Assembly (NCBI GenBank): GCA_965223545.1
Contig: OZ245006.1
Coordinates: 3,168,001 to 3,232,000 of the forward strand
Reading direction: 5' to 3'
Origin: Planctomycetota bacterium
GTDB lineage: Bacteria > Planctomycetota > UBA1135 > UBA2386
DNA length: 64,000 nt
Below are positions 40,387 through 56,190 of this stretch, in pieces. How positions within the stretch are numbered: the first letter of the stretch is position 1; every line of letters begins with the position of its first letter. Made by a program: the position numbers and the translations under genes. The notes beneath the pieces were generated by a model, which ran no database searches, was not told the origin of the DNA, and saw only the letters and a program-made list of their open reading frames with translations.

Positions 40387-41082
40387 TCACGACCCGCGGC
40401 GGGCGGGCTCCCGCTCCAACCACTCGCGGACCAAGTCTCCGTACGGGTCGGCTGCGGGCAGCGGCCACGAGGCCACCGGCGGCCGCGGGTCGTCGGTCGG
40501 CGCGAGCACCACGACCGCGGCGCGCAGCGCGGCATCGACACCGGGCACCTCGTGCGCCAGCGCTTCGACACTGCCGACGACCGCGTGCCGGGCCTCGCCC
40601 GCAGCGAGCATGTCCTGGGCCTCGACCAACGCCGCTCCCTCCTCACCGGGCTCCACCGACAAGCACAGGGTCGGTCCGCGCAGGCCGTGGCGCAACGCCA
40701 CTTCGCCCGCGCACGAGCTGAGCAACGTGTAGGGAAAGATCGAAGCCTGGACGATTCCTTCGCGCAGGCCACCGACGTACTGCAGGTCGACCTCGAGGCT
40801 GCCCCGCCGGGTCTCGGTGACCAGTGCGGCTCCGGCCCGCGCGCCGCCATCCAGCACGCCCTCCAGCCCGCTGGCCATCGCCGCCAGCGCCAGCGACCGC
40901 GACTGTCGGTCGAGGCGACGGAACGTGTCGTCGCGACGGCCGAACACGGTGCGCGGCGTGCTCCCCCTGCCGGGGGCCGCCACCCCGAGCTCCGACCAAG
41001 CAACCCGCACACCTGCGCTGCCGGCGATGCCGTCCCGATCGACGTGGCCAACGGCAATGATCTTGGGCTGCGGCACGGTCAC
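40387..41082 (-). CDS. Ketosynthase N-terminal-domain protein lacking the catalytic Cys (CLF-like)
   Basis: FRRLDRQSR, FPYTLLS..AGEVALRHGLRGP. The position of the ACAS motif is EEGA. Coupled to the upstream KS. Confidence 0.75.
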   Translation of the reverse strand: MTVPQPKIIAVGHVDRDGIAGSAGVRVAWSELGVAAPGRGSTPRTVFGRRDDTFRRLDRQSRSLALAAMASGLEGVLDGGARAGAALVTETRRGSLEVDLQYVGGLREGIVQASIFPYTLLSSCAGEVALRHGLRGPTLCLSVEPGEEGAALVEAQDMLAAGEARHAVVGSVEALAHEVPGVDAALRAAVVVLAPTDDPRPPVASWPLPAADPYGDLVREWLEREPARRGS

Positions 41083-42197
41083 GACGCGAACACCACCGCC
41101 TGCTGCAGGCCACCGAATCCACCCGCGACCTTGAGCGAACTCCGAGAGCGAGACAACTGCCGCGGCGCGCGCACCAACGCGAGACGATCGTCGACGCCGA
41201 CCGTGTCGAGCCCGACGTTGGCCGGCGCCATTCCGCGCTGTAGCGCGGCGATCGCGATCAACGATTCGATGATCCCCGCGGCGCCGAGGGTGTGCCCGAG
41301 CTGGGCCTTGCTGCCCACTGCCGGAGGCGTGCGGCCACCGAACACCCGGGCCAAGCCGCGCGCCTCGCTGGAGTCGTTGGCCAGCGTGCCGGTGCCGTGC
41401 AAGTGCACCAAATCGATGTCGGCGGGCTTCATCCCGGCATGCACCAAGGCACGCTCGGCGGCCACGGCCAACCCTCCGCCCTCGCGGTCGCACGCGGTGA
41501 CGTGACAGGCGTCGTTGCCGCCGCCAAACCCCGCGACGCGCATACCGACCGATTCCGCCTCGCGCGCGGACAACACCAGCGCGCCCGCGCCATCGCCCAG
41601 CGAGATGCCGCGGCGGCCGGCGTCGAACGGCCGGCACGGCTGCGGATCGAGGATGTGCATTCCGCTGAATCCGGCCAGGATGAACTGGTTGATCGCATCC
41701 GTGCCGACCACGAGCACTCGCTCTTCGCGACCGCTGGCGATGCGGCGCGCAGCCATGGCGATCGCGGCCAACCCGGAGGCGCACGCACAGGAGACGGCAC
41801 CGAGGACGGCGCGGCAACCGAGCGCGACCGCGACCCGGCGCGCCAGCCGCATCGGCGAGGCCAGGCCATCGCCGGGACAGTGGATGCCGGTCAGCTCGGC
41901 CTTGGTCGTCGCCAACACCAAGCCCACGGCGGCGGCATCGATCCAGGCTTCGGCCAGAGCCTCGCGGGCAGCAGCGACCGCGGCAGCCCCCGGCAACGAC
42001 GCTTCGTCGATCCCCTCGCACCAGGGATCGGCGGGGAACTCGGCGACGGCCTGTGCCGCAACCGCCACTGCCGCAGTGCGGCGGCGGGCGCGCAGCGCGC
42101 GCTCGCCGGCGAAGATCCCGCTCAGGAGGGCCGGGACGCCGGCGCCGAACCCGGTGACCGCACCGCGGCCAGAGACGTGCACCGCGCGACTCAGCAC
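41079..42197 (-). CDS. Beta-ketoacyl-ACP synthase (FabF-like KS)
   Basis: Catalytic triad motifs CACASG, HGTGT, SKAQLGHTLGAAG. Confidence 0.92.
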   Translation of the reverse strand: MLSRAVHVSGRGAVTGFGAGVPALLSGIFAGERALRARRRTAAVAVAAQAVAEFPADPWCEGIDEASLPGAAAVAAAREALAEAWIDAAAVGLVLATTKAELTGIHCPGDGLASPMRLARRVAVALGCRAVLGAVSCACASGLAAIAMAARRIASGREERVLVVGTDAINQFILAGFSGMHILDPQPCRPFDAGRRGISLGDGAGALVLSAREAESVGMRVAGFGGGNDACHVTACDREGGGLAVAAERALVHAGMKPADIDLVHLHGTGTLANDSSEARGLARVFGGRTPPAVGSKAQLGHTLGAAGIIESLIAIAALQRGMAPANVGLDTVGVDDRLALVRAPRQLSRSRSSLKVAGGFGGLQQAVVFAS

Positions 42198-42299
42198 GGC
42201 GTCGAGCGTGCGGCCGCGAAGGCAGATGGACCGGGAGCGGACATCGACGCGAATGCTAAGGCGGTGCCGGTGGAATCGCCGCTCTCGTTTTGGCCCCGT

Positions 42300-42929
42300 C
42301 TAGCGCGACGGCTCGAGCCGCGTCTCCTCGCGGGTCTCGATCACGAGCCGGTAGCCGAACCAGTGGTTGTCGACGACCGTGCGTCCCGGCGCGGCCCACC
42401 GTGGGTCGGCCCAGGTGTGGCGGACGACGATCTCGCCGGATGGCTCGCCGTCGACCCGGCGAAAGCGCCGCTCGAGCAGGCGGCCGCCCTCCCACCGTTC
42501 GGAGACCAGCTCGCCATCGACCTCGGCCGAGCGCTCGCCGGCGCCTTCACCCGCCAACCACGGATAGAACGCGCGCTGCACGTCGAGCAGGATGAAGCGC
42601 GGGGGAAACGGCAGGGGCTCGGAGGTGTTGTTCTGCAGGCTCACCTCGCCGTCGTGCAGCTCGATGGCGAACCCGACCCCGACCGGCGACAGCCCCAACA
42701 CCGTGAGCTCGTCACCGCGCTTCTGCACCACTGCGTCGAACCCACGCCGCTCGCCATCCCCCCACTGCGCCGAGACCCGCTGCCGCCACAGGACGTCGAT
42801 CGACAGGTCAGAAACAGCGCGCAGCTCACCGGGATAGTCGGCGTCTACGAGGCGCGGCCGGGGCGGCGACGCGCACGCCGCCATGCCGAGCGCCAACAAG
42901 AGAAGATCCCTCGACTTCGTTCTGCTCAA
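42300..42929 (-). CDS. DUF3261 family lipoprotein (ApeN-like)
   Basis: Lipobox MAAC, LTVLGLSPVG, PRFILLDVQ, YRLVIET. Position in an APE-type cluster. Confidence 0.75.
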   Translation of the reverse strand: MSRTKSRDLLLLALGMAACASPPRPRLVDADYPGELRAVSDLSIDVLWRQRVSAQWGDGERRGFDAVVQKRGDELTVLGLSPVGVGFAIELHDGEVSLQNNTSEPLPFPPRFILLDVQRAFYPWLAGEGAGERSAEVDGELVSERWEGGRLLERRFRRVDGEPSGEIVVRHTWADPRWAAPGRTVVDNHWFGYRLVIETREETRLEPSR

Positions 42930-45292
42930 GGCTCGGCGGACTCGACCGTCAACAGGACGCAGACGGTAGGCGCCACCAGGAGCGCGCACAAGGTGCCGAC
43001 GCCCGCCGTCAGACCGATTCCCGCCAGCGACGGCTGGCCGGAGCACGCCAGCAGCAAGAAGCTCCACGACGTGGTCACTCCAGAAACCGCCACCGCCAGC
43101 AGGGTCGCCTCGAGGGCGCCGCGATCGCCCCGCACTTCGGCCAGAAACACCCCGGAGTCGACGCCGAGGCAGACGACGAACAGCAGCGCCACCAGCGAGA
43201 GCGTGTTGAGCTCGACGCCCAGCAACGCCACCACGCCCATGGCCGCCGCGGCGGCGAGCACTGCCGGCAGGTAGGCGATCGCCGTCGGTCTCAGCGCGCG
43301 GTGGCGCAGCAACACGAGCAGCAAGACCGCCACCAGCCCACCGCCCAGCAGGCGGCTCATGTCAGCGCGGTACGCACCATAGGCGCGACTGAGCACGGCC
43401 TCGATGTCGACCAACCGCGCGCCGTCGATCGCCGCCAACCGCGACTGCACCGCCGCCTCGTCGGCCAGCTCGTGCAAGAAGCTGACGAAGCCGACGCGCT
43501 CGCCCAGAGTGACGCGGAAGGAGCGCACCAGCGGCGCCATGGCGCTGCTCTCCAGCGCGGCCCAGGTCAACGGTGCGGGCGGCTCCGTCGCCAGCGAGGC
43601 CTGCGCCTCGGCGAACGCGTCAGCGCGGAAGCCGTGCGCGGCGAGCGCCGCCCGCAGCCGTGGCCAGACCTCCTCGCCCCGCGCGGCCGCGTCGATCGCC
43701 CGCTGCCGCGACGCGCTCGGCAGCCAACTGGCAAGCGAGCGCACCGCGCCGAGCTCGCCGGCGTCGACGGCGGCCGACAGCACACCGTGCACCGCATCGT
43801 TCACCTCGAGCGCGGCCTGCTCGTCGCTGCCGACCGCGACCACCAGCCGCCGCTGCTCGTAGCGCGTCACGCGCTCGACCACCGCTCGGTCCTCGGCGAG
43901 CAGCGCGGAGTCCGGAGCGTTGAGTCCGGCCAAACTGTCATTCCAACGCAAGCGCGGCAGCCCGACGGCGGCCACCGCGACCGCGAGCACGACCGGCAGC
44001 GCGAGGACCCAACGCCGCGCACCGCGTGGCGACAGCAGCCGCGCCAGCCCGCGCGACGCCCAGCGCGCACAGCCGCCGGCCGCTCCGGCCCCGGCCAGCG
44101 GTGGCAAGAACGCCCAGGTCGCCGCCAGGGCGGCGGCCACCCCGGCTGCCGCGAACCACGCCAGCTCGCGCAACCCCGGGTAGGCCGACACCGACAGGGC
44201 GGCGAACCCCAGCACCGTGGTGGCGGCACCGAGCGTCAGCGCGGGCAGGATCCGTCGCAGCGTGCAGCGCGGCCCGCCGGCGGCAGGCGCCAGCACGTGG
44301 TGGCAGTAGAAGTGCACGGCGTAATCGACGGACACGCCGATGAGCGCGGCGCCGAAGGCCAAGGTGAGCCCGTGCACCGCGCCGCCGGTGAGCAACACCG
44401 CGGTGGTGCCGGCGAGGAAAGCGGCACCGAGCACCGGCAGGACCATGAACACCAGGCGGACCGAGCGAAACAACAGCGCGAACAAGACGGCCAAGCCGAG
44501 CGCCGAGCCGATGCTGACCCGCTGGATGTCACTCTTGATTGCCGCCTCCGCCGCGACGGCGTAGCGATGGGCACCGCTCTGCAGCAGCGACCATTCGGCG
44601 CCGGAGGCGCGGCGCACGCGCTCGAACGCGGCACGCACCCCGGCGAGGAAGGGCCGCTGCTGGCCGGCGTCCACCGACGACGCCCGAGTCGCCAGGAACA
44701 GGACCGCAGCCGTGCCGTCGCCGCTGACAAAGCGGCCGTCGATCACTTGCAGCCCCTCTGCCCTGCCGCCGAGCCAACTCTGGAACAGTCCGGGAAGGAT
44801 CAACAGCGGGTCTCCCGGCGCGACCCGCGTCAGCAACGTCGACATCGGCGACGCCAACCGGCGCTTGAGGCCGGCGACGGCGTCGCCGATCCCTTCGGTC
44901 GACAACACCCGCGCCGCGGCGTCGGCATCGCCCGCGACGAACGACCACCGCCGCGGGTGGTACAACCGCCAGAGCTCTTCCTCCAAGTCCGGCGGAGGCC
45001 CGCCGTCGACGAACGCCAGCTGCTCCGCGACCCCCGGCTGCGCGCGCAGCGCGGCCTCGAACTCGCGACTGGCCCGCACCGCCGCCTCGGTGCTGCCCGT
45101 CTCCACCAGCAGCACCAACATGCGCGACAGCTCACCAGCAGCCAATTGCTTGGCCAGGCGCACGTCATCGCCAGGCGCGCCGTCGGGCAAGAAGTGCGCG
45201 ACGTCGGTGTTCACCGCCAAACGCGCGGCGACGAACCACGCCATCACCGCGAGCGCGGCAATCCCGACGGCGGCCCGCCGGCCAGCGGTCAC
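42926..45292 (-). CDS. MMPL/RND-type exporter (ApeM-like)
   Basis: NTDVAHFLP, DPLL, IGVSVDYAVH, LGVDSGVF. Two TM bundles. Confidence 0.88.
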   Translation of the reverse strand: MTAGRRAAVGIAALAVMAWFVAARLAVNTDVAHFLPDGAPGDDVRLAKQLAAGELSRMLVLLVETGSTEAAVRASREFEAALRAQPGVAEQLAFVDGGPPPDLEEELWRLYHPRRWSFVAGDADAAARVLSTEGIGDAVAGLKRRLASPMSTLLTRVAPGDPLLILPGLFQSWLGGRAEGLQVIDGRFVSGDGTAAVLFLATRASSVDAGQQRPFLAGVRAAFERVRRASGAEWSLLQSGAHRYAVAAEAAIKSDIQRVSIGSALGLAVLFALLFRSVRLVFMVLPVLGAAFLAGTTAVLLTGGAVHGLTLAFGAALIGVSVDYAVHFYCHHVLAPAAGGPRCTLRRILPALTLGAATTVLGFAALSVSAYPGLRELAWFAAAGVAAALAATWAFLPPLAGAGAAGGCARWASRGLARLLSPRGARRWVLALPVVLAVAVAAVGLPRLRWNDSLAGLNAPDSALLAEDRAVVERVTRYEQRRLVVAVGSDEQAALEVNDAVHGVLSAAVDAGELGAVRSLASWLPSASRQRAIDAAARGEEVWPRLRAALAAHGFRADAFAEAQASLATEPPAPLTWAALESSAMAPLVRSFRVTLGERVGFVSFLHELADEAAVQSRLAAIDGARLVDIEAVLSRAYGAYRADMSRLLGGGLVAVLLLVLLRHRALRPTAIAYLPAVLAAAAAMGVVALLGVELNTLSLVALLFVVCLGVDSGVFLAEVRGDRGALEATLLAVAVSGVTTSWSFLLLACSGQPSLAGIGLTAGVGTLCALLVAPTVCVLLTVESAEP

Positions 45293-46005
45293 CGCACAGC
45301 GCGCTCGCCGCGCTTGGCCTCGCCGCCTTCGGCGCGCCCCGCCTCGACAGCGGCCGGACCGAACAGCTGCCGCCGCTCGGCCGCGCTGAAGCGGCGCCGC
45401 GGATCGGCGGCCGTGATCCGCGTCACCGAGCGGTCGCCGTTGGGCTCCTGCACCTCCAGCTCCTCGACCGCCGCGCCGACGCCACGCAGCTCCAAGACTC
45501 GCAGCATCTTCGTCAGCGGCTCGCGCCGCGGCACCAGCCGCAGACGCCATCTCCCGTCATCCGGCGCCGGCACGAACTCGATTTCGTAGGCCTCTGCCAA
45601 CCCGGCCCGATCACCGGACAGCACGCGCACCAACGAGGTCACGAACACCCGCAGCGCGTCGTTCTGCCGCAGGTCGATCACCTCTTCGCCGTCCTCCCCG
45701 CGCATCCGCAGAGTCTTCGGCGTGATCACCAACTCGGTGCGCTCCGGAGCGGTGACGTGCCGGGCGAGAAAGCCGGGGTGCAGATAGTACAGCCGCCCGC
45801 GACTCTCCAGCGGCACCGCCAACAGGGACAGGTGCTTCTCCTCGACGAACTCGGCCTGCAGCCCGCGCACTTCGGCCAGCAGCGCGAGCAACTCGTCGGC
45901 GGTCGTCGGCGAGGGCGCCGCGACCGCGGCGCCCTCGTGCTCAACCTGCTGCGCGGACAGAGGCGTCACGAGCAGACAGCAACCGAGGACGGAGGTGCGC
46001 AACAT
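45289..46005 (-). CDS. LolA-like carrier protein (ApeL-like)
   Basis: Signal peptide, AEFVEEKHLSLLAVPLESRG, WRLRLVP, EPNGDRSVTR. Confidence 0.85.
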   Translation of the reverse strand: MLRTSVLGCCLLVTPLSAQQVEHEGAAVAAPSPTTADELLALLAEVRGLQAEFVEEKHLSLLAVPLESRGRLYYLHPGFLARHVTAPERTELVITPKTLRMRGEDGEEVIDLRQNDALRVFVTSLVRVLSGDRAGLAEAYEIEFVPAPDDGRWRLRLVPRREPLTKMLRVLELRGVGAAVEELEVQEPNGDRSVTRITAADPRRRFSAAERRQLFGPAAVEAGRAEGGEAKRGERAVR

Positions 46006-46172
46006 TTCGTCGAGTCCAAAGCTTGGAGGCGTGGATTGTGTCGCGCTTCGACGACACAAGCCAGCGGTGTAGCGCAGACCGATGGGACACCGAGTGGCCG
46101 TGGTCCGAGCTTGGGTTTCACGGCAGCCGCCCCCTGCCCGAGCCGAAGCCCCTGCAGTAGAAGCCCACTGAC

Positions 46173-46871
46173 TCACGCCGGCCGCTCGCGGAAGTCCAAC
46201 CGCCCCCGCGACCGCCGCCACCCCCCCTTCAGCAGCCAGGTCCGCGCCCGCACCGTCGGCCGCGCCACCGGCTCCGACAGCTCCACCCCCTCGCGCCACC
46301 CGTCGAACCAGGGCCCGGACGAGTAGACGTCGATCGCCTGCCGCGGCCGCTGCCGGTGGTGCCAAGCATTCTGCAGCACATACACCAACGCCCGCCGCAC
46401 CTCCGTCGGCGAGCGCAGCACCCGCTCGTGAAACCGTTCGGCAAACACCCGCCCCGAACGCCCCCACAGCTTGTTCAACCCCCGCGCCATCCGCACCAAC
46501 AGCCCGGTCATCCCCCGCGTCAACGCCTCCCGATCCTTCGCCTCGACCAAGAGGTGCAAGTGATCGCGCTGCACCGAGAACTCCACCAACCGAAACCCGA
46601 ACCGCCCACACCCCGCCCGGATCCGCTCCACCAACATCCAGTAAGTCCGCGCATTCCGTAAGCCCGGCAACCCCCGACACAACCGCACCGTCACGTGCAA
46701 CGGATACCGCGCCACCAACGCCCCCCGCGCCAAGTGCGGCACCGTCTCATCACTCACCTTGGGCCGACCAGCCCCCTCCCGAGCCCCACCCCACTGCCGA
46801 AACGGCAACTCACCCTGCACCACCCCACGGCGTCGTCCACCGCGCCCCGATCGAACTGCCTTGCTCGTCAT
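46173..46871 (-). mobile_element. RAYT / IS200-like Y1 HUH transposase
   Basis: HVTVR, HUH motif DHLHLLVE, RFH, catalytic Tyr YVLQN. Strongly G-skewed coding strand, unlike the neighbouring genes. Confidence 0.85.
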
Positions 46872-46875
46872 TTGA

Positions 46876-46904
46876 ATTAGCGACCTTATCAAAGAGGGAG
46901 TCAA
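46876..46904 (-). promoter_or_regulatory. Possible sigma70-type promoter of the transposase
   Basis: Minus strand TTGACT-N17-GCTAAT, ending 4 nt before the ATG at 46871. Confidence 0.4.
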
Positions 46905-46986
46905 CATGCAAGAATCCGACAAGGAATCTGCGAAAGCGGCCGGCGAATCGCACGCTACCCTGCTCCCAACAATCTCGACTCCAGAA

Positions 46987-47088
46987 CTGAGGCGAGTGCG
47001 CTCCACTCCGCGACGAAAACCGCAATCTTGATTCCGCGACCTTCAGTCTAAGAGAGCCAGCCCATCAAATAGGATCGGGACCGCCGCC
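46987..47088 (+). repeat. Direct repeat, copy 1 (102 bp; copy 2 at 49369-49470)
   Basis: ctgaggcgagtgcgctccactccgcgacgaaaaccgcaatcttgattccgc… is near-identical in both copies. A further 24 bp is identical at 47177-47200 and 49471-49494. Confidence 0.92.
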
Positions 47089-47167
47089 CGCAGCTCCGTC
47101 ACCATCGGCGTCGGTCGCACCCTGTGCCTCGTCTTGGACCGATGCTGATGGTGATGGAGCTGCGGGC
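47086..47167 (+). repeat. REPIN-like long hairpin, copy 1
   Basis: Arms 47086-47116 and 47137-47167 (31 nt; 28 Watson-Crick plus 3 G-T pairs). The 20-nt loop contains an inner GCAC/GTGC hairpin. Confidence 0.9.
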
Positions 47168-47275
47168 AGCCCCGCTAGCTCTCGATCCAGAGGCCGAGGG
47201 AGCAAGCGCTCGCGCTTCCCTCTCCTGCTCCCACACACCTCCAGCTCCAGAGCTGAAGGCTCGCCTCACCACCAT

Positions 47276-49308
47276 GCCGAGTAGCCGCGGGGGGTTGCCC
47301 CCCCGCAGCTCTCACAGAACCGGACTTGTGGGTCACACATCCGGCTCTTCAGGACGGTATCCCCCAAAGGGGCCGCCAGTCGTAACGGCGCTCGTCCCAG
47401 AGCTTGGAAAGCGACACCAGCCGCTCAGCAAACCACTGATTGGGATAAGCGCGTTTGATCGCTCCCGAGTTGCTCTGCCACCACGTGCCACGCCGGCCAA
47501 ACGCGGTGCGTGCAGCCGACTGCCAGCTGCACCCACGGGCGACAAGGTCTCGGAAGAGGTATCGCGGTCTCTTCTTCTGCCGAATGATGATCGCCCGCAG
47601 GCGTCGTCGAATATGGCCATCGAGATTCCGCAAGGTCCGCCACGCGGCCTTCGTGATCAGCTTGAAGTAGCCGATCCAACCACGGAGGTAACGGTTCAGT
47701 CGTTCGATGCACCAGGACAGCCGACCACCCCAGGACCGCGGCGTAAGCTCACGGATTCGGGCGTCGATGCGATCCAGAGTGCGACGGGACAACTGCACCG
47801 TCAGCCAGCCCTTTCGAGTTGCGCCTACGCGAAACCCGAGGAAGTGCCGGCGATGGGCCAGGTCGACGGAACTCTTCGCTTCGTTCACTTTCAGTCGCAC
47901 GCGACGTTCGATGAACCTGCGAATCGAAGCCATGACCCGGTGTCCTGAGCGCTCGCTACCGACGTAGATATTGCAGTCGTCGGCGTAGCGCACAAAACGC
48001 AACCCGCGTCGTTCCAACTCCCAGTCCAGTTCGTCCAGGACGATGTTGGACAGCAGAGGTGATAGCGGGCCGCCCTGGGGCGTTCCTTCTTCCGTGATGA
48101 CGCGGGTGCCATCTGGAAGAACCACGTTCGCTTTCAGCATCAGGCGGATGATCCGCAGCACCCGACGGTCCTTCACCTTCTGAGCCAGCCGGTCCAGGAG
48201 GCGTTGGTGATGGACACGGTCGAAGAACTTCTCCAAATCGATGTCCACCGTGTACCGCCGACCCTGCTTCACGTAACCCGCTGCTTCGGCGATCGCTGTG
48301 TGGGCTCCCCGCCTCGGCCGGAAGCCGTGGCTGCTGTCGTGGAACGTCGGGTCGTAGATCGGCTCCAGAATCTGGCGCACGGCCTGTTGGACCCAGCGGT
48401 CGATCACGGTTGGAATCCCGAGACCCCGCTGCCCACCACTGGGCTTCGGGATCCACACCCGACGAATATCGCCGGGCGCGTAGGTCTCCATGAGCAGAGC
48501 ATCGCGGAGTTTCGGGAGCAGGTGTTTCGCATGACGCTTGACCTCTGACACCGTCTGTCCGTCGACGCCCGGGGCGCCCTTCTTGCTTACGACATGTGCC
48601 AGTGCGCTTCGCAGGTTGCCCTGCTCCGCGACCAGCTCCAGCAGATGGCAGTAGCCGTCCGCTGGCGGTGGAGCCGATTCCGATCGATGGCTGCAATCCG
48701 TCGTAGGCACCGACGTGGACTTCGTGGCAGATTCGTCTGCCCTTCCGGCCACGCCGTCCCCTTGCGGGCTCTCGGCGAAAGCGAACTGCAGTTGCCGTGG
48801 TTTCGGCTTTCTCATCCTGTCACCCCCTTCGCTCCACCGGCATTACCCGGCTTCATCACTACTACGGGGTGATCCGACTTCGCTGCATGCCTTGGTGGGT
48901 CGTCGTTGCCTCCTCCCCACCTACCGCTCGAAGCGGACACACAGAGATCTCCCTGGGTAAGAACGCAGAGTTTCGCGCCGCCGCCGGTTCCAGTACTCCG
49001 AGGTCGCGACTGGATATCGGGCGTCACGTTGGATGGCACGCTGACCCAGACCTCGAGAGCCTTACGGAACTTCGCTTTCGCTCGGTGCTGCGCTGCGTCT
49101 AGGGCTTCCATCCCACACGACCTCGCGGGAACAGCACGGCACGGTGTCCGTCCTGTTCTGGCATCCCGGATCAACACCGCGCACCGCCCTCTCGGACGGC
49201 ACACGGCTCCCCTTTCTGCCTCGTGCAGCTGCCTTCGACTCATGGTTTCCTCCAGTACGGATCCATAAAGAACTTTCATCTTCAACTCTGCGCCCATGCC
49301 AGGCGCAA
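47276..49308 (-). mobile_element. Group II intron (class C-like)
   Basis: 5' end TTGCGCCTGGCATGGGCGCAG. Short domain V GAGCCGGATGTG-TGACC-CACAAGTCCGGTTC (47317-47347). Domain VI with bulged A ending …GCTACTCGGC. Internal RT ORF. Confidence 0.88.
47349..48815 (-). CDS. ltrA: Group II intron reverse transcriptase/maturase (no endonuclease domain)
   Basis: KGAPGVDG, RGLGIPTVIDR, SHGFRPRR, DIDLEKFFD, GTPQGGPLSPLLSNI, RYADD, FLGF, X-domain LRGWIGYF. Confidence 0.96.
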   Translation of the reverse strand: MRKPKPRQLQFAFAESPQGDGVAGRADESATKSTSVPTTDCSHRSESAPPPADGYCHLLELVAEQGNLRSALAHVVSKKGAPGVDGQTVSEVKRHAKHLLPKLRDALLMETYAPGDIRRVWIPKPSGGQRGLGIPTVIDRWVQQAVRQILEPIYDPTFHDSSHGFRPRRGAHTAIAEAAGYVKQGRRYTVDIDLEKFFDRVHHQRLLDRLAQKVKDRRVLRIIRLMLKANVVLPDGTRVITEEGTPQGGPLSPLLSNIVLDELDWELERRGLRFVRYADDCNIYVGSERSGHRVMASIRRFIERRVRLKVNEAKSSVDLAHRRHFLGFRVGATRKGWLTVQLSRRTLDRIDARIRELTPRSWGGRLSWCIERLNRYLRGWIGYFKLITKAAWRTLRNLDGHIRRRLRAIIIRQKKRPRYLFRDLVARGCSWQSAARTAFGRRGTWWQSNSGAIKRAYPNQWFAERLVSLSKLWDERRYDWRPLWGIPS

Positions 49309-49378
49309 CACCGACGACAGCGGTCCAAGACGAGGCACGGGGTGCGACCGCCGCCGACGGTGACGGAGCTGAGGCGAG
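49309..49378 (-). repeat. REPIN-like hairpin, copy 2 (inverted; its 3' arm continues at 47260-47275 after the intron)
   Basis: Reverse complement cagctccgtcaccgtcggcggcggtc-gcaccccgtgcctcgtcttg-gaccgctgtcgtcggtg|atgg matches copy 1. Confidence 0.88.
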
Positions 49379-49494
49379 TGCGCTCCACTCCGCGACGAAA
49401 ACCGCAATCTTGATTCCGCTACCTTCAGTCCCAGAGGGCCAGGCCATCAAACACGACCGGGACCGCCGCCAGCTCTCGATCCAGAGGCCGAGGG
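49369..49494 (+). repeat. Direct repeat, copy 2 (lacks the 88-bp hairpin insert of copy 1)
   Basis: Here …gaccgccgcc is joined directly to agctctcgatccagaggccgaggg. Confidence 0.9.
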
Positions 49495-49509
49495 CTTCCG
49501 GAGGCGGGA

Positions 49510-49950
49510 CTACTCACCATGGTTGACGCTCGGCTCCGGCAGGCGCGCCAGCAGCGCGTCGGGCGTCGTCGCCAACAGCGTCCCGTCAGCGTCGGTGGTC
49601 GCCAACACGGTCGTCGCCCGCGCGCTCCACCGGTCCACCTCGGGGTTGCGGACGTCGTAGCTGATGCGAATCAGCGGCGAGACCTGGCCGAACCACGCGG
49701 TTACGTGCACTGGGTCGCCGTAGTGCAGAGGCGCCATGTAGCGGCACTTCGCCTCGACGACGTACATGCGGAAGCCGAGCTCGCGGATCTGGTGCACTTC
49801 GAGATCGACGCTGGCGAACAGGGCGGCGCGGGCGACTTCCAGCCACTCGAAGTAGCGGCCGTGCCAGGCGACGTTCAGCGGGTCGCAGTGGTGGAACGAC
49901 ACGCGGGTCGTGCTGAGGATGGCGTGTTCCGGGCGTCGGATGCGCGTCAC
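49510..49950 (-). CDS. Acyl-CoA/ACP thioesterase (4HBT hotdog, ApeK-like)
   Basis: FHHCDPLNVAWHGRYFEWLEVAR, CRYMAPLHYGD. Confidence 0.88.
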   Translation of the reverse strand: MTRIRRPEHAILSTTRVSFHHCDPLNVAWHGRYFEWLEVARAALFASVDLEVHQIRELGFRMYVVEAKCRYMAPLHYGDPVHVTAWFGQVSPLIRISYDVRNPEVDRWSARATTVLATTDADGTLLATTPDALLARLPEPSVNHGE

Positions 49951-49958
49951 AACAGGAT

Positions 49959-51206
49959 CTAGTTCAGGTGGGCCCAGATGGCGTCCGCGATCAGCGCCGC
50001 CTTGGCGTGGATGCCACGGTCGTTCATGTGCCCCAGGTCGAGGAACACATCGGAGTAGTCCGCCAGCATCGCGGCGTCGAGGTCGACGAACAACACCGCG
50101 TCGCCATAGCTTTCGGCGATCTCGCGCATGCGCTGGTTGCACTGCTCGACGTGCGCCTTCTGTGGTTCACCGATCTCTGGCGCTCGGTTGTACGGCTGCG
50201 TGGTGAGCACCGGAACCACGCCGCGCGCCAGAGCGAGGTCGGCAAAGGTGCGCACGTTGCGCTCGTACCACCGGAGATCCTCCATACGTTCGCGCTTCGC
50301 ACCGGCATAGCGAACGTCACCGCGCATCGCCGCTGCACCAATCCAGCCCCACGCCGGAGTCTCGAACCAGGCGTCCTGCAGACCGCGGTAGATCACACTC
50401 GCACGCAGCAACCAGCGATCGGGAATCGGCGGCATCGAGAACCGGCGGAGCACATGGCTGTAGTCGGAGCGGGCCTCGGCCCGCACGTCCCGCACCCTTC
50501 CGTCGTTCCACGCGTGGTGGAACACGACGTAGTCGGGCGAGAACCACAGGCCGTTCAAGACGAGATTCACCAGCGAATGGGCGCTCGTGTAGTAGCCGAT
50601 GCCGAAATTGAAGGCTTGCACCTCGGTGCGGCCGCGCACCGGACCGTTCTCATCGAGCGCTCGTTGCAGTCGGGCCCGCGCGATGTCCGGGAACCCCGTC
50701 GCCGTGGTCGAGCCACCGTGGCACACGACGCGCAAGACATGCGCCGGCTTGTCTCGCTCGTGCATCGGACCGAGGAAGCCGAGCTCGTTGAAAGGGGTCG
50801 GCCACCGCATCTGCGCACTGTCCTGCGGCCGGGCCTTGGGCCGGCCGGTGAACTGCAAGAACGGGTGGGCCTGGAACACCACGAGGTCGGGATAGGTCCG
50901 CGCCGAGAGGTCGAGCAAGTGCTGGCGCAGCTCCGGGTCGCGCGCCATCACGACGCGCGCCGTCAGCTCGATGCCGACCAGCAGCAACAGCGGCAATCCG
51001 GCGGCCGCCAGCCGGCCGCCGGACGGACGGCGCCAAACGGCCCAGGCCCACGCCAGACAGAGCGCTGCGCCACACCACAGCGGAAGCCGCTCGGCGGAAT
51101 GCAGCGGTCCCATCGCCACCGTGCGCTCGGCCACGGGAGGCATCAGCAGGATGCCGGCCATCCCGCCGATCACCGCGATGCCGCGCAACAGCGCTCGACG
51201 ACTCAT
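49959..51206 (-). CDS. Membrane-anchored SGNH/GDSL hydrolase-family protein
   Basis: Three N-terminal TMs, block I GGSTT, block II NFGIG, block III AWND, block V DLGH. Confidence 0.8.
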   Translation of the reverse strand: MSRRALLRGIAVIGGMAGILLMPPVAERTVAMGPLHSAERLPLWCGAALCLAWAWAVWRRPSGGRLAAAGLPLLLLVGIELTARVVMARDPELRQHLLDLSARTYPDLVVFQAHPFLQFTGRPKARPQDSAQMRWPTPFNELGFLGPMHERDKPAHVLRVVCHGGSTTATGFPDIARARLQRALDENGPVRGRTEVQAFNFGIGYYTSAHSLVNLVLNGLWFSPDYVVFHHAWNDGRVRDVRAEARSDYSHVLRRFSMPPIPDRWLLRASVIYRGLQDAWFETPAWGWIGAAAMRGDVRYAGAKRERMEDLRWYERNVRTFADLALARGVVPVLTTQPYNRAPEIGEPQKAHVEQCNQRMREIAESYGDAVLFVDLDAAMLADYSDVFLDLGHMNDRGIHAKAALIADAIWAHLN

Positions 51207-51294
51207 CTCGCGCGGAGCATTCGACACAACCACGGCATCGAGACGATCATATGCCGAGCTCGGCAGTCGTGAGACCGAGCCGGCGCACCATGCG

Positions 51295-52197
51295 CTGATC
51301 GCCATCCTGCCGTGGCATCACCGCTACCTCGCCGCTGCCGTCGGGACGCTGGTCGTCGCCAGTGCCTATTGGACCCACCAGCTCGGCCTGACTCTCCTCC
51401 CGGGCTGGGTCGCGCTCAGCGTGTGGGCCGGGCATCGTCAGGGTGCGCCAACCACTCTTGGCACGGTCTTGCTGCTGCTCGCCGCCTACACCGCCGCCGT
51501 CACGCTCGCATTCGCTGCTCCCGCCTGGCGGCACGGCCTCGACGTCACTCCCTCGCTGGCAGCGGCCAGCGGGCATCTCCGACTTCTCGCCGCCGGCGAC
51601 CAGTCGTGGCTCGACGTGCTGTGGCACGGGTGGCTATGGCCGAACGCCGGCATCGTCGGGCTGGCACTCGCCTGCGCATTCCGGTCCGCGGCAGGCGCGC
51701 CAGCCGCGGTCTTCGTGCTGCCGTTGGTGGCCACCGGCATCGTCAGCGGCGCCCTCGAACACGGCGGCTACTCGGTGGGAGCTCTGCCGATGCTGGGCTT
51801 GATGGTGGCACACGGCCGTTGGCGCACCGCGGTCTGGGGGACGTCGGTCGGCTGCGCCCTGGTCGCGCAAGGGTGGCTGGCGCACGGCCACCTCGAACGC
51901 TGGAACGCCCCGGCGAGCGCAACCGAGGCGCAGCAGCGCGTCCCCCGGCTGATCGCCGCCGTCGAGGGAGACGAACCTCCGCAGCGGATGGTTTCGACGA
52001 TCTGTGCGCACATCGATCTCATCCTCGAGCGAGGCGGTCGGGTCGGCTGGGACCTCGGCTTCGCGCGGCACCTCGAACACTTCCCGCGCGCCACGCCGTA
52101 TGCCACCGCGCTGAGTGCCGCGATAGAGAGTCGTTACCGCACCGAGCACCACGCGCACGACACGTGGCCGCTGCTACTCGTCTCCGCGCTGCGGTGA
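51295..52197 (+). pseudogene. Polytopic membrane protein, apparently 5'-truncated remnant
   Basis: Long open frame with several TM segments. No in-frame ATG after the divergent SGNH gene start (ATGs at 51251 and 51290 are out of frame and hit a TGA). Confidence 0.4.
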
Positions 52198-53103
52198 GAC
52201 ATCCGGCGACGGTGCCTGCCAGAAGTCGAAGAAGTTGAACCAGTTGTCCGGCGCCGAACGGGCGTAGACCTGCAAGCGGTCGGCGTAGCGCTGCACGACC
52301 TCGGCCAAGCACTCTTCGCGCCGCGCGCGCGGCAGCTCGATCACGTCGGCGAACGGCTCGCAGTGCAGGTCGTACCGATTGGGCTCGCGATACAGCCCGA
52401 AGACCAGGTAGACCGGGCAGCGCAACAGCGATGCCAACAGGAACGGGCCGGCGGGAAAGCTGGCCTCGTCACCGAAGAACCGGGCGCGGACGGTGCGCTC
52501 GTTCAAGCCGACGCGATCGCCCAAGATGGCCACCAGGTCACCGGCATCGACGCGCTCCTTCACCTTGACCATCGAACCGACGAGGTCGTCGCCGAGGTGG
52601 ATGACGCGCGCGGCCTGCTCGGGATTCAGCGCCTCGAGCAGGCTGTTGATCATCTTCGCGTTCTTGAAGTAGCCGAGGATGTGGATCGGCACGCGGTCGG
52701 CATCGCCGCCCGCCCGCATCGCCTCGAAGCTGCCGAGGTGGGCGCCGAGCAACACCGCGCCCCGGCCGGCGTCGGTCTGCCGCCGCAGGTGTTCGTCCCC
52801 GGTCCGCGTGAAGCGCAGGGCGCCGACCCGGCCGCTAGCGAGGAACACCCGGTCCATGGTGGCCTGGGCGAACGTCCTGATATGACGGTACACCTGCCAA
52901 AACCCGGGCGGCGCCCCGTGCACCCGTTCGAGCCACGCCTTCGAGCTCGCGACCGCGCGTCGATCGAACAGCCTGTAGTAGAGCGCGACGCCCCACACCA
53001 CGAGTCGCATGGCGCGACGACCGAGCAAGGTCGCGAGCCGATAGGTCACGCGGATCAAGAGCAAGGTCCCGCGCTCGCCCTGGCTCAACCAGGTGTCGCT
53101 CAC
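52174..53103 (-). CDS. LpxL-like lipid acyltransferase
   Basis: W..QGERG start, GAHLGSFE, ILGDR, APDNWFNFFDFW. Confidence 0.9.
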   Translation of the reverse strand: MSDTWLSQGERGTLLLIRVTYRLATLLGRRAMRLVVWGVALYYRLFDRRAVASSKAWLERVHGAPPGFWQVYRHIRTFAQATMDRVFLASGRVGALRFTRTGDEHLRRQTDAGRGAVLLGAHLGSFEAMRAGGDADRVPIHILGYFKNAKMINSLLEALNPEQAARVIHLGDDLVGSMVKVKERVDAGDLVAILGDRVGLNERTVRARFFGDEASFPAGPFLLASLLRCPVYLVFGLYREPNRYDLHCEPFADVIELPRARREECLAEVVQRYADRLQVYARSAPDNWFNFFDFWQAPSPDVSPQRGDE

Positions 53104-53861
53104 CCGGCGTCCGCGGTCCGGCGCCGCCCGGTGACCGAGTCCCAGAGCCAACCCACCGAGCCCGCCGTGCAGAGCCGAGCATGCAGCCAGGCGAACGCGA
53201 GGTTGTCGCGCAGCGGCCGAAAGTGGGACACGCCGCCCGCCTCCGGGGTCAAGTAGCGCACCGCCACCGGCAAGTTGACCACCGGAGTGCCACAGCGGAC
53301 GAGCCGGACGATCACCTCGACGTCGAAGCCCATCCGGTCCCCCGTGCGCCCCAGCCGTTCGACGGCGGCCAACGGATAGACGCGAAAGCCGATCATCGCA
53401 TCCGCCACCGTCACCTGCCGGCCGACCTCGAGGGCGACCCACATCGTCGTGAACCGCCGCCCCACGGCACGGACGCGCGGCACGGTCTCATCGTACTGAG
53501 GGTAGCCCAGCACCAGCGCTTCCGGTGCCGCGCGCGCCGCCGCGACGAACTCCGGCACGCGGCCGAGATCGTGCTGTCCATCGGCATCGACCTGCAGCGC
53601 GTGGCTGAACCCGAGCTCGCGCGCCACCGCAAACCCAGTCTTCACCGCGGCTCCCTTGCCGCGGTTGCGGTCGTGGCGGCGCACCGTCGCCGCCCCCGAG
53701 GCGCCGAGCGCGGCACACGCCGCTCGCCCCTCGGCGGCACTACCGTCGTCGATCAGGACGACGGCGAGGCCGTGGGCACCGAGGGTTTCGACGACCGCGG
53801 CGACCGTGCGAGGGTTGTCGTAGGTCGGCACCACCGCGCACACTTCGACCACCGAGCTCAT
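53100..53861 (-). CDS. Glycosyltransferase family 2 (ApeJ-like)
   Basis: VVPTYDN, IDDGS, NRGKGAA, QVDADGQH, GFRVYPL, SHFRPLRDN. Confidence 0.92.
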   Translation of the reverse strand: MSSVVEVCAVVPTYDNPRTVAAVVETLGAHGLAVVLIDDGSAAEGRAACAALGASGAATVRRHDRNRGKGAAVKTGFAVARELGFSHALQVDADGQHDLGRVPEFVAAARAAPEALVLGYPQYDETVPRVRAVGRRFTTMWVALEVGRQVTVADAMIGFRVYPLAAVERLGRTGDRMGFDVEVIVRLVRCGTPVVNLPVAVRYLTPEAGGVSHFRPLRDNLAFAWLHARLCTAGSVGWLWDSVTGRRRTADAG

Positions 53862-55258
53862 CCCGGGTGCACCTCGTCGACGGTGGCCGGCGCGGTGTCG
53901 ACGCTGGCAAACTCGAGCCGCCCGAAGCTGCAGCGCGTCGCAGCACGGCGGACGCAGAACTCGACGCGGCCGGAGCCGGGCGGCGCGAGGACCGCGACCG
54001 TCAGCGTGTCCCCGGGTGCAATGCGCGCCGCGAACTTCAGCCCGTTGAGTCGACGCAAGTCGCCGAGCGCCGGGTTGGCCCGCCGCACACACGGCAAGAC
54101 GAGCTCGTGGAGCTGCACGGCGCCGGCGAGAACGGGATAACCACTGAAGTGGCCGGCGAAGAACGCGTAGCGGGGCGGAACATGCACGCGGTAGCACTGC
54201 CAGCCCGCTCCGAGGGCCGACGCATCGGCCGGCGCCGGCTCGAAACGCAGCGCGCACGTCAAGCGCACTCCGGTCCGGTCGCGGTGGCAAGCCGCCAGAA
54301 CCGCGTTGCGCTGCGGACGCCCGTTGGCGTCCCGTGCGATCTCGGCAACCTCGTGCACGGCAACCGCGCCGGCTTTTTGCATCGCGGCCAGCCGGGCGCG
54401 GACCGCGTCACCTTTGGCGCCAGCCGACTCCGAATCGCCAACGACGGCGACGGCGTGGCCGGCGTCGGCCTCCGCGCTGAGACGCAGCGCCACCGCGTCG
54501 GCGATCCCATCGACTTCGAGCGCCGCGCCGGCGAGGGCGTCGGCCACCGGCTCGCGGTGCGCCGGCGGCACCAACTCCGCGAGCGACGAGACCGACCGCA
54601 CGCCGACTGCTCCGGCACGGGGATCGCCCGTCACGGCGCCCGTCACGCGGCCGGCTTCGCGCAGCGGGATCAACAGCGCCGCGACCAGCGCCGGCGGGTA
54701 CATCGGACACAACGCGCGCGCTGCCGCCCGCGACTCCGCCGTCGCGCCCGCGCGCACGTCCTCGATGCACCGGCGGGTCGCGGCGACGCTGTACGCGTCG
54801 GATCGCAGGGCGCCTTGCCAGTCGAGGGCGAACCCCGTCCACGCGACCTCGTCGCCGGCACCCGGCGCAGCGGCCGCCACGGCCGAGAATCGCGATCCGT
54901 CTCGCAGCAGCCCGGGGACGTAGTGCCCGCGGCCGGCACCGGTGTCGTGCAAGAACTCGACGACCTCCTCGCGCGCCAACACCGGAGCCACGACGACGCG
55001 ACTGGCCGTCTCCGGCAGCGCGGCGGCGTGACCCGCCAACCACGTGCCCAGCAGCGCGACGGCGAACGCGTGTCGATCGCGCTCGAAGGCGAACGCGACG
55101 TGAGATCCCGGCCGCGGGGCCGGCAGCACCGCGGCCACTGCCGCCGCCTGCGCCAAGAGCTCGGTGACGGTCACCGTGCCGCCGGCGCTGCCCTCCAAGA
55201 CCGCGTCGCCACTTGCCCGCAAGAGCCAGAACGGCAAGCCCCGCAACCCCTCGGTCAC
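53858..55258 (-). CDS. Degenerate adenylation-like domain fused to FabZ/ApeI-like dehydratase
   Basis: DRHAFAVALLGTW N-terminus, I.RDANGR, C-terminal FFAGHFSGYPVLAGAVQL…LKFAARIAPGD. Confidence 0.75.
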   Translation of the reverse strand: MTEGLRGLPFWLLRASGDAVLEGSAGGTVTVTELLAQAAAVAAVLPAPRPGSHVAFAFERDRHAFAVALLGTWLAGHAAALPETASRVVVAPVLAREEVVEFLHDTGAGRGHYVPGLLRDGSRFSAVAAAAPGAGDEVAWTGFALDWQGALRSDAYSVAATRRCIEDVRAGATAESRAAARALCPMYPPALVAALLIPLREAGRVTGAVTGDPRAGAVGVRSVSSLAELVPPAHREPVADALAGAALEVDGIADAVALRLSAEADAGHAVAVVGDSESAGAKGDAVRARLAAMQKAGAVAVHEVAEIARDANGRPQRNAVLAACHRDRTGVRLTCALRFEPAPADASALGAGWQCYRVHVPPRYAFFAGHFSGYPVLAGAVQLHELVLPCVRRANPALGDLRRLNGLKFAARIAPGDTLTVAVLAPPGSGRVEFCVRRAATRCSFGRLEFASVDTAPATVDEVHPG

Positions 55259-55866
55259 GACTCGCGGACCTTTGGCCGGGCGACCGGCCGCGGAAACCGC
55301 TGGCGGCGCAACCACCACTCGAGCAGCAGCAGGCCGCCGATCAGGCCGTAAGCCAGCATGCCGTTGTACAGCGCCCACCAAGACACCGGCGCCCAAGCAC
55401 CGAGCGCCAACGCGATCGCGCCGTTGACCACGAAGAAGCCGCACCAGATCCGCGTCCATCCGCGACACCACGCGCGCTGCTCGAGACTCAACGACGGCTC
55501 CTGCAACCTCGCGAAGCGCTCGATCATCGGCACCGAGCCAGCGCGCAACGTCGCGCCGAACGACAGCAACAGAACGGCGTTGACGGCGACAGGGACGGCG
55601 AGCATGAAGCCCATCCGGTCGAGCGCGGCGGCGGACGCCAGCGCGGCAATCGTGACCAGAGGGACGAGGGCGATTCCGCCCACCGGGCTTCGGGCCGCGC
55701 GCCCCCGCAGCAGTGCCGCCGGCACCAGCAGACCGAGCAGCACCAAGGCCGTCCACCGCGGGCCGCGCGCGGTCAGCCCCCACCAGACGAGAACCGGATA
55801 GGCGACCAATACGCAGCCGGCCGCGACTCGAATCAGGCGCGACGCTGGCGTTGGCGTCGACCCCAC
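55255..55866 (-). CDS. COG4648-type membrane protein (APE-cluster associated)
   Basis: VAYPVLV, PVAVNA, FGATL…PMIERFARL, TRIWCGFFVVNG, WALYNG. Confidence 0.85.
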   Translation of the reverse strand: MGSTPTPASRLIRVAAGCVLVAYPVLVWWGLTARGPRWTALVLLGLLVPAALLRGRAARSPVGGIALVPLVTIAALASAAALDRMGFMLAVPVAVNAVLLLSFGATLRAGSVPMIERFARLQEPSLSLEQRAWCRGWTRIWCGFFVVNGAIALALGAWAPVSWWALYNGMLAYGLIGGLLLLEWWLRRQRFPRPVARPKVRES

Positions 55867-55875
55867 GTCACGACC

Positions 55876-56190
55876 TCACGACAGCTCCGACGCCGACGCA
55901 CCAGAAGCCGGTGAGCCGGCGGGATCGGCCGCCGCCTGCCGGCTGCGGATGAACTCGGCGAGCGACTTCACCGAGTAGTAGTAGTCGCGGTTGCGCTCGT
56001 CGTTCTCCTCGGTCTTGACCCCGAACTCGGTATGGAACGCGAGGGCCAGCTCGAGGGCGTCGATCGAATCCAGCCCGAGCCCCTCCCCGAACAGCGGCGC
56101 GTCGGTCTCGATGCTCGCCGGCTCGACGTCTTCGAGGCCGAGCGTATCGACGATGATGTGCTTGATGCGGTCTTCGAGCTGGTCTGACAT
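55876..56190 (-). CDS. Acyl carrier protein
   Basis: LFGEGLGLDSIDALEL phosphopantetheine-Ser motif, acidic composition. Confidence 0.95.
   Translation of the reverse strand: MSDQLEDRIKHIIVDTLGLEDVEPASIETDAPLFGEGLGLDSIDALELALAFHTEFGVKTEENDERNRDYYYSVKSLAEFIRSRQAAADPAGSPASGASASELS

Follow-up and report, generated by a model that had tools for sequence, protein, structure and literature searches.

Hairpin-guided group II introns are known in two forms, one of which seeks terminators and the other attC sites. Here we describe a group II intron from a Planctomycetota bacterium, which lies in a stretch of 64,000 nucleotides referred to below as the window (contig OZ245006.1, positions 3,168,001 to 3,232,000; G000:C1:3168001-3232000, where G000 is the genome of the window and C1 its chromosome contig). 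The original prediction described it as a IIC-like intron inserted into a hairpin of a repetitive extragenic palindrome (REP) system, the RAYT/REPIN system, and proposed that one mobile system supplies landing sites for another. The intron is real and the feature is stronger than first reported, because 13 of its 14 genomic copies split the same arm of one hairpin family. It is probably an endonuclease-less, class C-related retroelement whose ribonucleoprotein (RNP) retrohomes into single-stranded DNA hairpins, with its niche here in the arrays upstream of an insertion-sequence-like (IS-like) HUH/Y1 transposase and in an ISL3 element.

According to the parts of the literature that were consulted, the protein of IIC introns holds a stem of about 12 bp, the exon-binding sites EBS1 and EBS3 read the adjacent single-stranded bases, and replication gives the primer (Chung 2022, PMC10190682). 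The IIC domain V has a distal stem 2 bp shorter than that of IIA and IIB introns and carries CGC in place of AGC (Toor 2006, PMC1702495). attC introns use a folded single-strand target on one strand (Leon 2010, PMC3001079), and for a Pseudomonas putida group II intron two of the nine copies are listed as REP-associated (Tobes and Pareja 2006, PMC1525189). These last two are the nearest precedents in those parts. In the texts searched, mainly open-access ones without supplements, nothing is found on the present clade or on intron homing into hairpins of HUH elements. With the terminator-seeking introns B.h.I1, GsI-IIC and E.r.I1 our intron shares the closest reverse transcriptase (RT) family (43-50% identity), the lack of an endonuclease, a short domain V, a 4-nt EBS1 plus EBS3 and hairpin-linked targets. 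It differs from them by an AGC triad, a 31-nt domain V with a variable 5-nt loop, a separate RT clade, the end bases U1 and penultimate G of its sub-branch, and sites that are not T-rich and lie within a 33-36 bp stem. The IIC-attC introns (S.ma.I2 type) are alike in being a class C lineage on one strand of a folded single-strand site of another mobile system, but the targets here are not attC and EBS1 is varied in the clade. The REP-targeting elements ISPpu9, ISPpu10, ISPsy8 and ISPa11 likewise use a palindromic repeat of another element as a safe site. They are, however, DNA transposons, whereas a retroelement with RNA-DNA pairing does so here.

Removal of positions 47276-49308 in silico restores the 3' arm of a hairpin, as originally predicted. 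The rejoined exons form a 33-bp imperfect stem with its loop at 49326-49345, and the 110 nt of rejoined sequence have a folding energy of -36.0 kcal/mol, calculated for DNA. The intact sister hairpin named in the prediction exists (arms at 47083-47116 and 47137-47170), but it belongs to a different subtype, is inverted, and its 3' arm diverges after ATGG. Empty copies of subtype A, to which the window target belongs, are present elsewhere in the genome, for example at C1:7636525. The 14 full-length copies found by BLAST (identity 99.46-100%) represent seven distinct sequences and have the same first and last bases in every case (Table 1), so that the boundaries are exact; the only further BLAST match is a short one of 73% to another RT. 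The 13 in-family copies are divided into subtypes A (seven), B (four) and C (two), and all of them interrupt the 3' arm on the same strand. The cut lies 14, 17 or 20 nt into the arm. The arm is thus fixed while the position is not, and the single arm position proposed for checking is replaced by three registers. Altogether six site classes are occupied: A at two registers, B at two, C and a non-family site.

A census of the intron-excised chromosome yields 198 long hairpins. Twenty-six belong to the target family, half of them occupied, and none of the other 172 is occupied although 46 of these match G[AG]TG[GA] within an arm (Fisher p 1.5e-7). The family covers about 0.03% of the chromosome, which gives a naive binomial p of about 1e-45 for 13 of 14 copies, the copies being not fully independent. 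All 13 use the strand that folds more stably, by 2.7-8.5 kcal/mol, while the other strand also has one or two matching sites. Contigs from runs X5 and X7 of two other studies each contain one exon-intron junction in the target family, at the 20-nt register. The original prediction read these hairpins as the homing target of the intron, and the numbers above support this.

It is very unlikely that one or two old insertions were passively multiplied together with the hairpin unit, whether it was transposed, recombined within arrays or spread by gene conversion. Such arrays do expand and contract, tandem occupied B units are found at C1:6.35 Mb, and a contig of run X1, which may come from the source sample, is without one whole array unit and its intron, though this may be an assembly join over a 51-nt repeat. 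However, one intron sequence (five copies) occupies A, B and the non-family site, and another (three copies) occupies three different site types. Passive co-transposition therefore cannot explain all copies and as the sole process is ruled out, and the spread of the seven intron sequences over site types points to repeated retrohoming. The nearest relatives, moreover, use unrelated hairpins in the same way. The element is probably a recently active, endonuclease-less group II retroelement.

The choice of sites is explained by base pairing. EBS1 (CAUC) pairs with the intron-binding site IBS1 GATG at nine of the 14 sites and, through one wobble, with GGTG at five; IBS3 at +1, opposite the C of EBS3, is G at 12 sites and A at two. 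The site in the window, GGTG/A, is one of the two weakest, and it is here that the pairing with the exon end CGGTG, which the prediction proposed to look for, is found. Across the wider clade, 40 introns carry 22 different EBS1 sequences. With one intron per EBS1 (n=22), EBS1 and IBS1 form on average 3.27 of 4 Watson-Crick pairs against 1.54 after permutation, a value reached in 0 of 10,000 permutations, and EBS3-IBS3 is Watson-Crick in 15 of 22 against 6.4. EBS1 and EBS3 thus explain the sites and, by these alignments, co-vary with the targets across relatives. The E. rectale structure has one more pair, at exon position -6 (Chung 2022, PMC10190682); this was considered and rejected as a general rule, since G is present there at only 8 of 14 sites.

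The intron-encoded protein is a RT/maturase that scores 373 bits against the TIGR04416 cut-off of 300. Its only Pfam matches are RVT_1 and GIIM, and no endonuclease domain is found in its 488 aa, as predicted. The best PDB match is the GsI-IIC RT (E 2.8e-119). In a hand-picked tree of 76 rows, which held no references for classes g6, U1 and U2, the protein falls within a class C-like node of 69 rows with support 100, a nested and a sister position not being separated. Rfam family RF02001 matches the intron at 48962-49132. Several IIC properties are present: the length of domain V agrees with the shortened form, EBS1 pairs at three or all four of its positions in 38 of 40 clade introns, and EBS3 is Watson-Crick in 30 of 40. 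Exon positions -7 to -12 vary among the 14 sites, so that the exon sequences contain no shared IBS2. Two other IIC properties are absent. The triad is AGC in the window intron and its protein-found relatives, while canonical controls show CGC in 49 of 57, the other eight not being parsed; and 13 of 14 sites lie within a 3' arm, with no terminator-like match found at the insertion site. The intron therefore fails two defining IIC tests, triad and terminator target, though it works like a IIC intron. On this evidence it is not a canonical IIC intron but a member of a well-supported class C-related clade, and the label IIC-like holds for the RT, the missing endonuclease, the short domain V and the EBS1 plus EBS3 guide, not for the triad or the targets.

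Among genome hits whose 3' end is intact, the five closest, found by protein, are 50-58% identical and share the AGC triad, the 31-nt domain V and the 5-nt loop, and four rhizobial and sphingomonad plasmid copies, also found by protein, share the AGC/31-nt domain V. A domain V pattern matches at least 120 metagenome stretches, and of 400 further genomes from the phylum it matches 6. Triad and loop length are built into the pattern and hence given in its matches, whereas the compensatory domain V pairs observed among 31 distinct clade sequences are not imposed by it. In a 145-row tree the AGC-type RTs form a clade of 55 rows with support 100, outside which the tagged long-branch row L110 falls, and in the hand-picked tree the clade has 30 rows with support 99. 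The RT phylogeny proposed with the original prediction thus gives a class C-related but separate clade, apart from both terminator and attC references. Membership in IIC-attC was rejected because the integron attC introns L254 and L255, the only two such references, group elsewhere and carry CGC. It may be that the Sinorhizobium meliloti SM11 copy is already listed under class C. In the window intron and its relatives L111 and L129 the first base is U (49308 in the window) and the penultimate base G (47277), where the other 39 clade introns have G with A; this is likely a compensatory change of an end-to-end pair in one evolutionary event. In six cases (L112, L125, L126, L138, L143, L164) a clade intron directly abuts a second group II intron, or the end of one, in a tandem arrangement.

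The targets of the relatives were compared with those of canonical introns. From 135 domain V hits 38 full-length introns were obtained; with the four plasmid copies added, flanks required and duplicates removed, 37 targets remained, against 51 canonical controls. T-rich exon ends are observed at only 1 of the 37 clade targets but at 37 of the 51 controls, and at 18 of 23 when the controls are matched for GC content. The first ten bases of the 3' exon pair strongly with the 5' exon in 12 of 37 clade targets, against 8% of chimeric pairs and 1 of 51 controls (p ~2e-5 and 8e-5). The in-stem count would be lowered by chimeric flanks, which metagenome contigs of multi-copy introns may have. Long hairpins interrupted in the 3' arm are likewise the targets of the nearest full-length relatives, L129 (88% nucleotide identity) and L111 (79%). 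Of the first ten bases of the 3' exon, 10 pair upstream in L129 and 9 in L111; the L111 hairpin resembles the window family but is preceded by a DDE transposase. Within 40 nt of 24 of the 37 clade targets there is a GCGNAGC or CCGNAGG mini-hairpin. Such a mini-hairpin accompanies one of the 51 controls, one of the 23 GC-matched controls and, when the reverse strand is read, one of the 37 targets; among background windows 4% have it. This motif was selected post hoc, the four plasmid loci are closely related to one another, and the GNA mini-hairpin is missing from the target in the window genome itself. Among 23 scanned clade loci (three longest open reading frames per side, clade loci only), a DDE transposase or integrase core is near nine and a Y1 domain near none, and tblastn with two Y1 queries gives no match in 139 clade loci, many of them short. 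It is possible, though rather less likely than not, that the clade is a third, undescribed class C lineage widespread across phyla. Such a lineage would have abandoned terminators for the single-strand hairpins that transposons and further kinds of mobile element carry (long stems, GNA mini-hairpins), and with a remodelled domain V and a re-programmable five-base guide would invade paired stems and parasitise or disable element ends.

Two observations on individual relatives may be added. Clade members L248-L251, on S. meliloti SM11, Novosphingobium and Rhizobium plasmids with culturable hosts, cut at GCGTAG/C inside a GNA mini-hairpin. The L034 target hairpin is a perfect palindrome in an apparent coding region, and the intron has inserted 4 nt beyond its stem.

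Copy number, target family, strand, registers, the EBS1/EBS3 rules and clade identity are read directly from the sequence, and the homing steps are inferred. By analogy with IIC introns, the thumb and DNA-binding domain of the RT would dock on the loop-proximal stem, while EBS1 and EBS3 would read five bases in the 3' arm. When the 5' exon alone is folded, IBS1 of subtypes B and C stays paired, fully or in all but its last base. Since the target bases are paired in the fully folded hairpin, attack probably takes place while the arm is partly zipped, at a replication fork or in a transcription bubble, or EBS1 displaces the arm. The nascent strand could then prime the cDNA. Alternatively, targeting may be that of an ordinary IIC intron and only the niche unusual: an inner 11-bp stem would be read like a terminator, with insertion 6-9 nt beyond it and the outer pairs open. 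This is a possible explanation but a rather doubtful one. In the fold of subtype A a T-T mismatch ends such an 11-bp stem 6 or 9 nt before the two used sites, which agrees with IIC splice sites 3-11 nt after the stem-loop (Toor 2006, PMC1702495) and the stem length of about 12 bp (Chung 2022, PMC10190682), and some clade members (L034, L137) insert right after a hairpin. The geometry does not suit subtypes B and C, however, whose stem runs without a break into IBS1 and takes in all of it or leaves out just the last base. The clade also avoids terminators, as seen in the exon ends, and its domain V departs from the IIC definition.

The gene next to the intron encodes a HUH transposase, as originally predicted. 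It resembles RAYT (TnpA-REP) and IS200/IS605 Y1 transposases in having HUH plus a catalytic Tyr and long palindromes beside the gene, but is multi-copy, carries YVLxN and has mostly local hairpins. The RAYT/REPIN label does not stand. The protein reaches 35 bits against a cut-off of 80 for the RAYT model NF047646, and the genome has 12 full copies of its gene at 94-100% identity plus one fragment, while a RAYT is by definition a single-copy, domesticated gene in the consulted part of Bertels 2017 (PMC5581495). In 120 homologues the two His of the HUH motif are conserved to 98% and 100% and the Tyr to 99%; the motif YVLxN is followed by A, not P, and no YxxxNP occurs. Neither YxxxNP nor YxxxQ, nor any other class signature in the part consulted of Quentin 2018 (PMC6006769), matches YVLxN. 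Homologues, some of them automatically named RayT, are found in 19 of 60 relatives with up to 47 in one. Conventional RAYT-type genes are present as well. One with the motif YIDHNP at C1:1729907 (region 1729870-1730900) is flanked by its own GTAC-initiated repeat, a family with 221 arms genome-wide, many of which form perfect 35-64 bp palindromes; none of the 221 arms contains an intron. Another gene of this type is located at C1:3914571.

At all 13 transposase loci A and inverted B hairpins with conserved spacers form a variable array upstream of the gene, and beyond the stop codon the copies in G000 have no common right end. The hairpins defined by motif number 28: 23 lie no more than 1 kb from a transposase gene, three are in the ISL3 element and two are degenerate solos. 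Among 28 loci with homologous transposases in 19 relative genomes, four, from two genomes (G017 and G011), have homologous hairpins on the flanks of the gene, and G017 shows 74 motif hits. In that genome the Y1 homologue occurs in tandem 1,374-bp units with hairpins on both sides (L297, G017:C34:166500-172500), which suggests an undescribed IS-like family with the motif YVLxN. Because of the location near the gene, the co-occurrence in relatives and these tandem units, the hairpins are probably functional parts of an IS-like element. The subtype C hairpin lies near the 5' end of a three-copy 1,443-bp element (G000:C1:2608349, 3672973, 5061446), assigned to ISL3 from its protein by eye; the two copies co-directional with the replication fork hold the intron and the head-on copy is empty.

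The transposon would thus supply and multiply non-coding landing sites and probably carry some introns along. Could the intron be a specialist of the RAYT/REPIN system, perhaps assisted by the HUH protein through a nick or a bound protein that marks the site? We regard this as unlikely. In its favour, with introns removed from the sequence 11 of the 14 copies map to the 800 bp in front of the transposase, the intron has entered 8 of the 10 transposase loci that possess a complete hairpin, and hairpin and transposase are found together in G017 and G011. But the genuine RAYT/REP family is unused, ISL3-borne hairpins far from any Y1 gene are used, and in the clade loci, many of them short, no Y1 gene is found, while a DDE transposase is near 9 of the 23 scanned. 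The preference is probably for the shape of this hairpin plus a five-base match, not for the transposase itself. The idea that one mobile system provides landing sites for another is therefore kept for this genome. A lineage-wide HUH association is not found in the clade loci covered, many of which are short; the targets of the relatives are hairpins of other kinds, in many cases GNA mini-hairpins next to DDE transposases.

Several observations weigh against retrohoming into the stem of transposon hairpins as the preferred explanation. The 14th copy lies antisense within a long open reading frame outside the hairpin family, and X1 contigs show further non-family junctions. The two ISL3-borne copies have identical introns and flanks, so that both subtype C insertions may be one event. 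The bias for the lagging-strand template, with the fork inferred from GC skew, is not significant, either for the copies (10 of 14 co-directional, p 0.18) or for hairpin occupancy by fork orientation (9/14 against 4/14, p 0.13). Only 12 of the 37 clade targets show clear in-stem insertion, and several lie just after a hairpin, like those of ordinary IIC introns. Finally, REP arms have the preferred G at +1 in 20 of 221 cases and A in 79; since few offer G, part of the avoidance of REP may be plain sequence.

Table 1. Coordinates of the intron, its parts, the target hairpin and neighbouring features in the window
Feature	Position	Strand	Remarks
Group II intron, class C-related	47276..49308	minus	2,033 nt; ends UUGCG ... 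CUACUCGGC
Intron-encoded RT/maturase	47349..48815	minus	488 aa, YADD intact
EBS1 (CAUC)	49032..49035	minus	8-nt loop GCCAUCCA; loop located via Rfam alignment
EBS3 (C)	48993	minus	covariation across relatives
Domain V	47317..47347	minus	31 nt, AGC triad, 5-nt loop, AA bulge; sequence and pair counts over 31 distinct clade sequences
Domain VI	47279..47313	minus	predicted fold; bulged A at 47282, seven nt before 3' end
Target hairpin 5' arm, subtype A	49346..49378	minus	refold of rejoined exons
Target 3' arm, first 17 nt, ending in IBS1 GGTG (5' exon end)	49309..49325	minus
Target 3' arm, remaining 16 nt (3' exon start)	47260..47275	minus
Empty sister hairpin, subtype B	47083..47170	plus	34-nt arms, 88% complementary; orientation opposite
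Spacer repeat of hairpin array	46984..47091		108 nt; second copy 49366-49473, 91% identical
HUH/Y1 transposase	46173..46871	minus	232 aa; motifs HLH, YVLQN; PF01797 E 1.3e-5

With 13 occupied and 13 empty family hairpins, two strands, three registers and an unused REP family as control, the genome offers a natural experiment for a third form of hairpin-guided intron, and the question of what such RNPs read in a DNA hairpin becomes directly testable. One mobile element breeds landing sites for another, as the invaded transposase loci illustrate. For ribozyme evolution as well as structure-directed gene targeting, the varied EBS1 and the altered domain V deserve attention.

The block of transposase, array and intron is located inside a fatty-acid/polyketide-type cluster on the minus strand (window 41079-56190), with genes for a ketosynthase, a MMPL protein, a LolA-like protein, a thioesterase, a GDSL hydrolase and an acyl carrier protein. 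The intron is co-oriented with the surrounding minus-strand genes, so that read-through could express it at this locus. A one-base insertion near the end of the open reading frame alters the C-terminus of the protein in two intron copies (G000:C1:1355549-1357582 and 6127148-6129181). The hairpin arms (window 47137-47165; L259, L270) have a 3-nt periodicity and, by eye, read like D-A-D/E-G-D-G codons in G000, G017 and G011, the differences lying mostly at third codon positions. A single-copy group II intron of a distant group is present in the region of G000:C1:4530840. Introns of this distant group are also observed in G040 (L018), where one begins about 240 bp upstream of a homologous Y1 transposase, and in G017 (L298), where one ends about 250 bp before a hairpin and not inside it.

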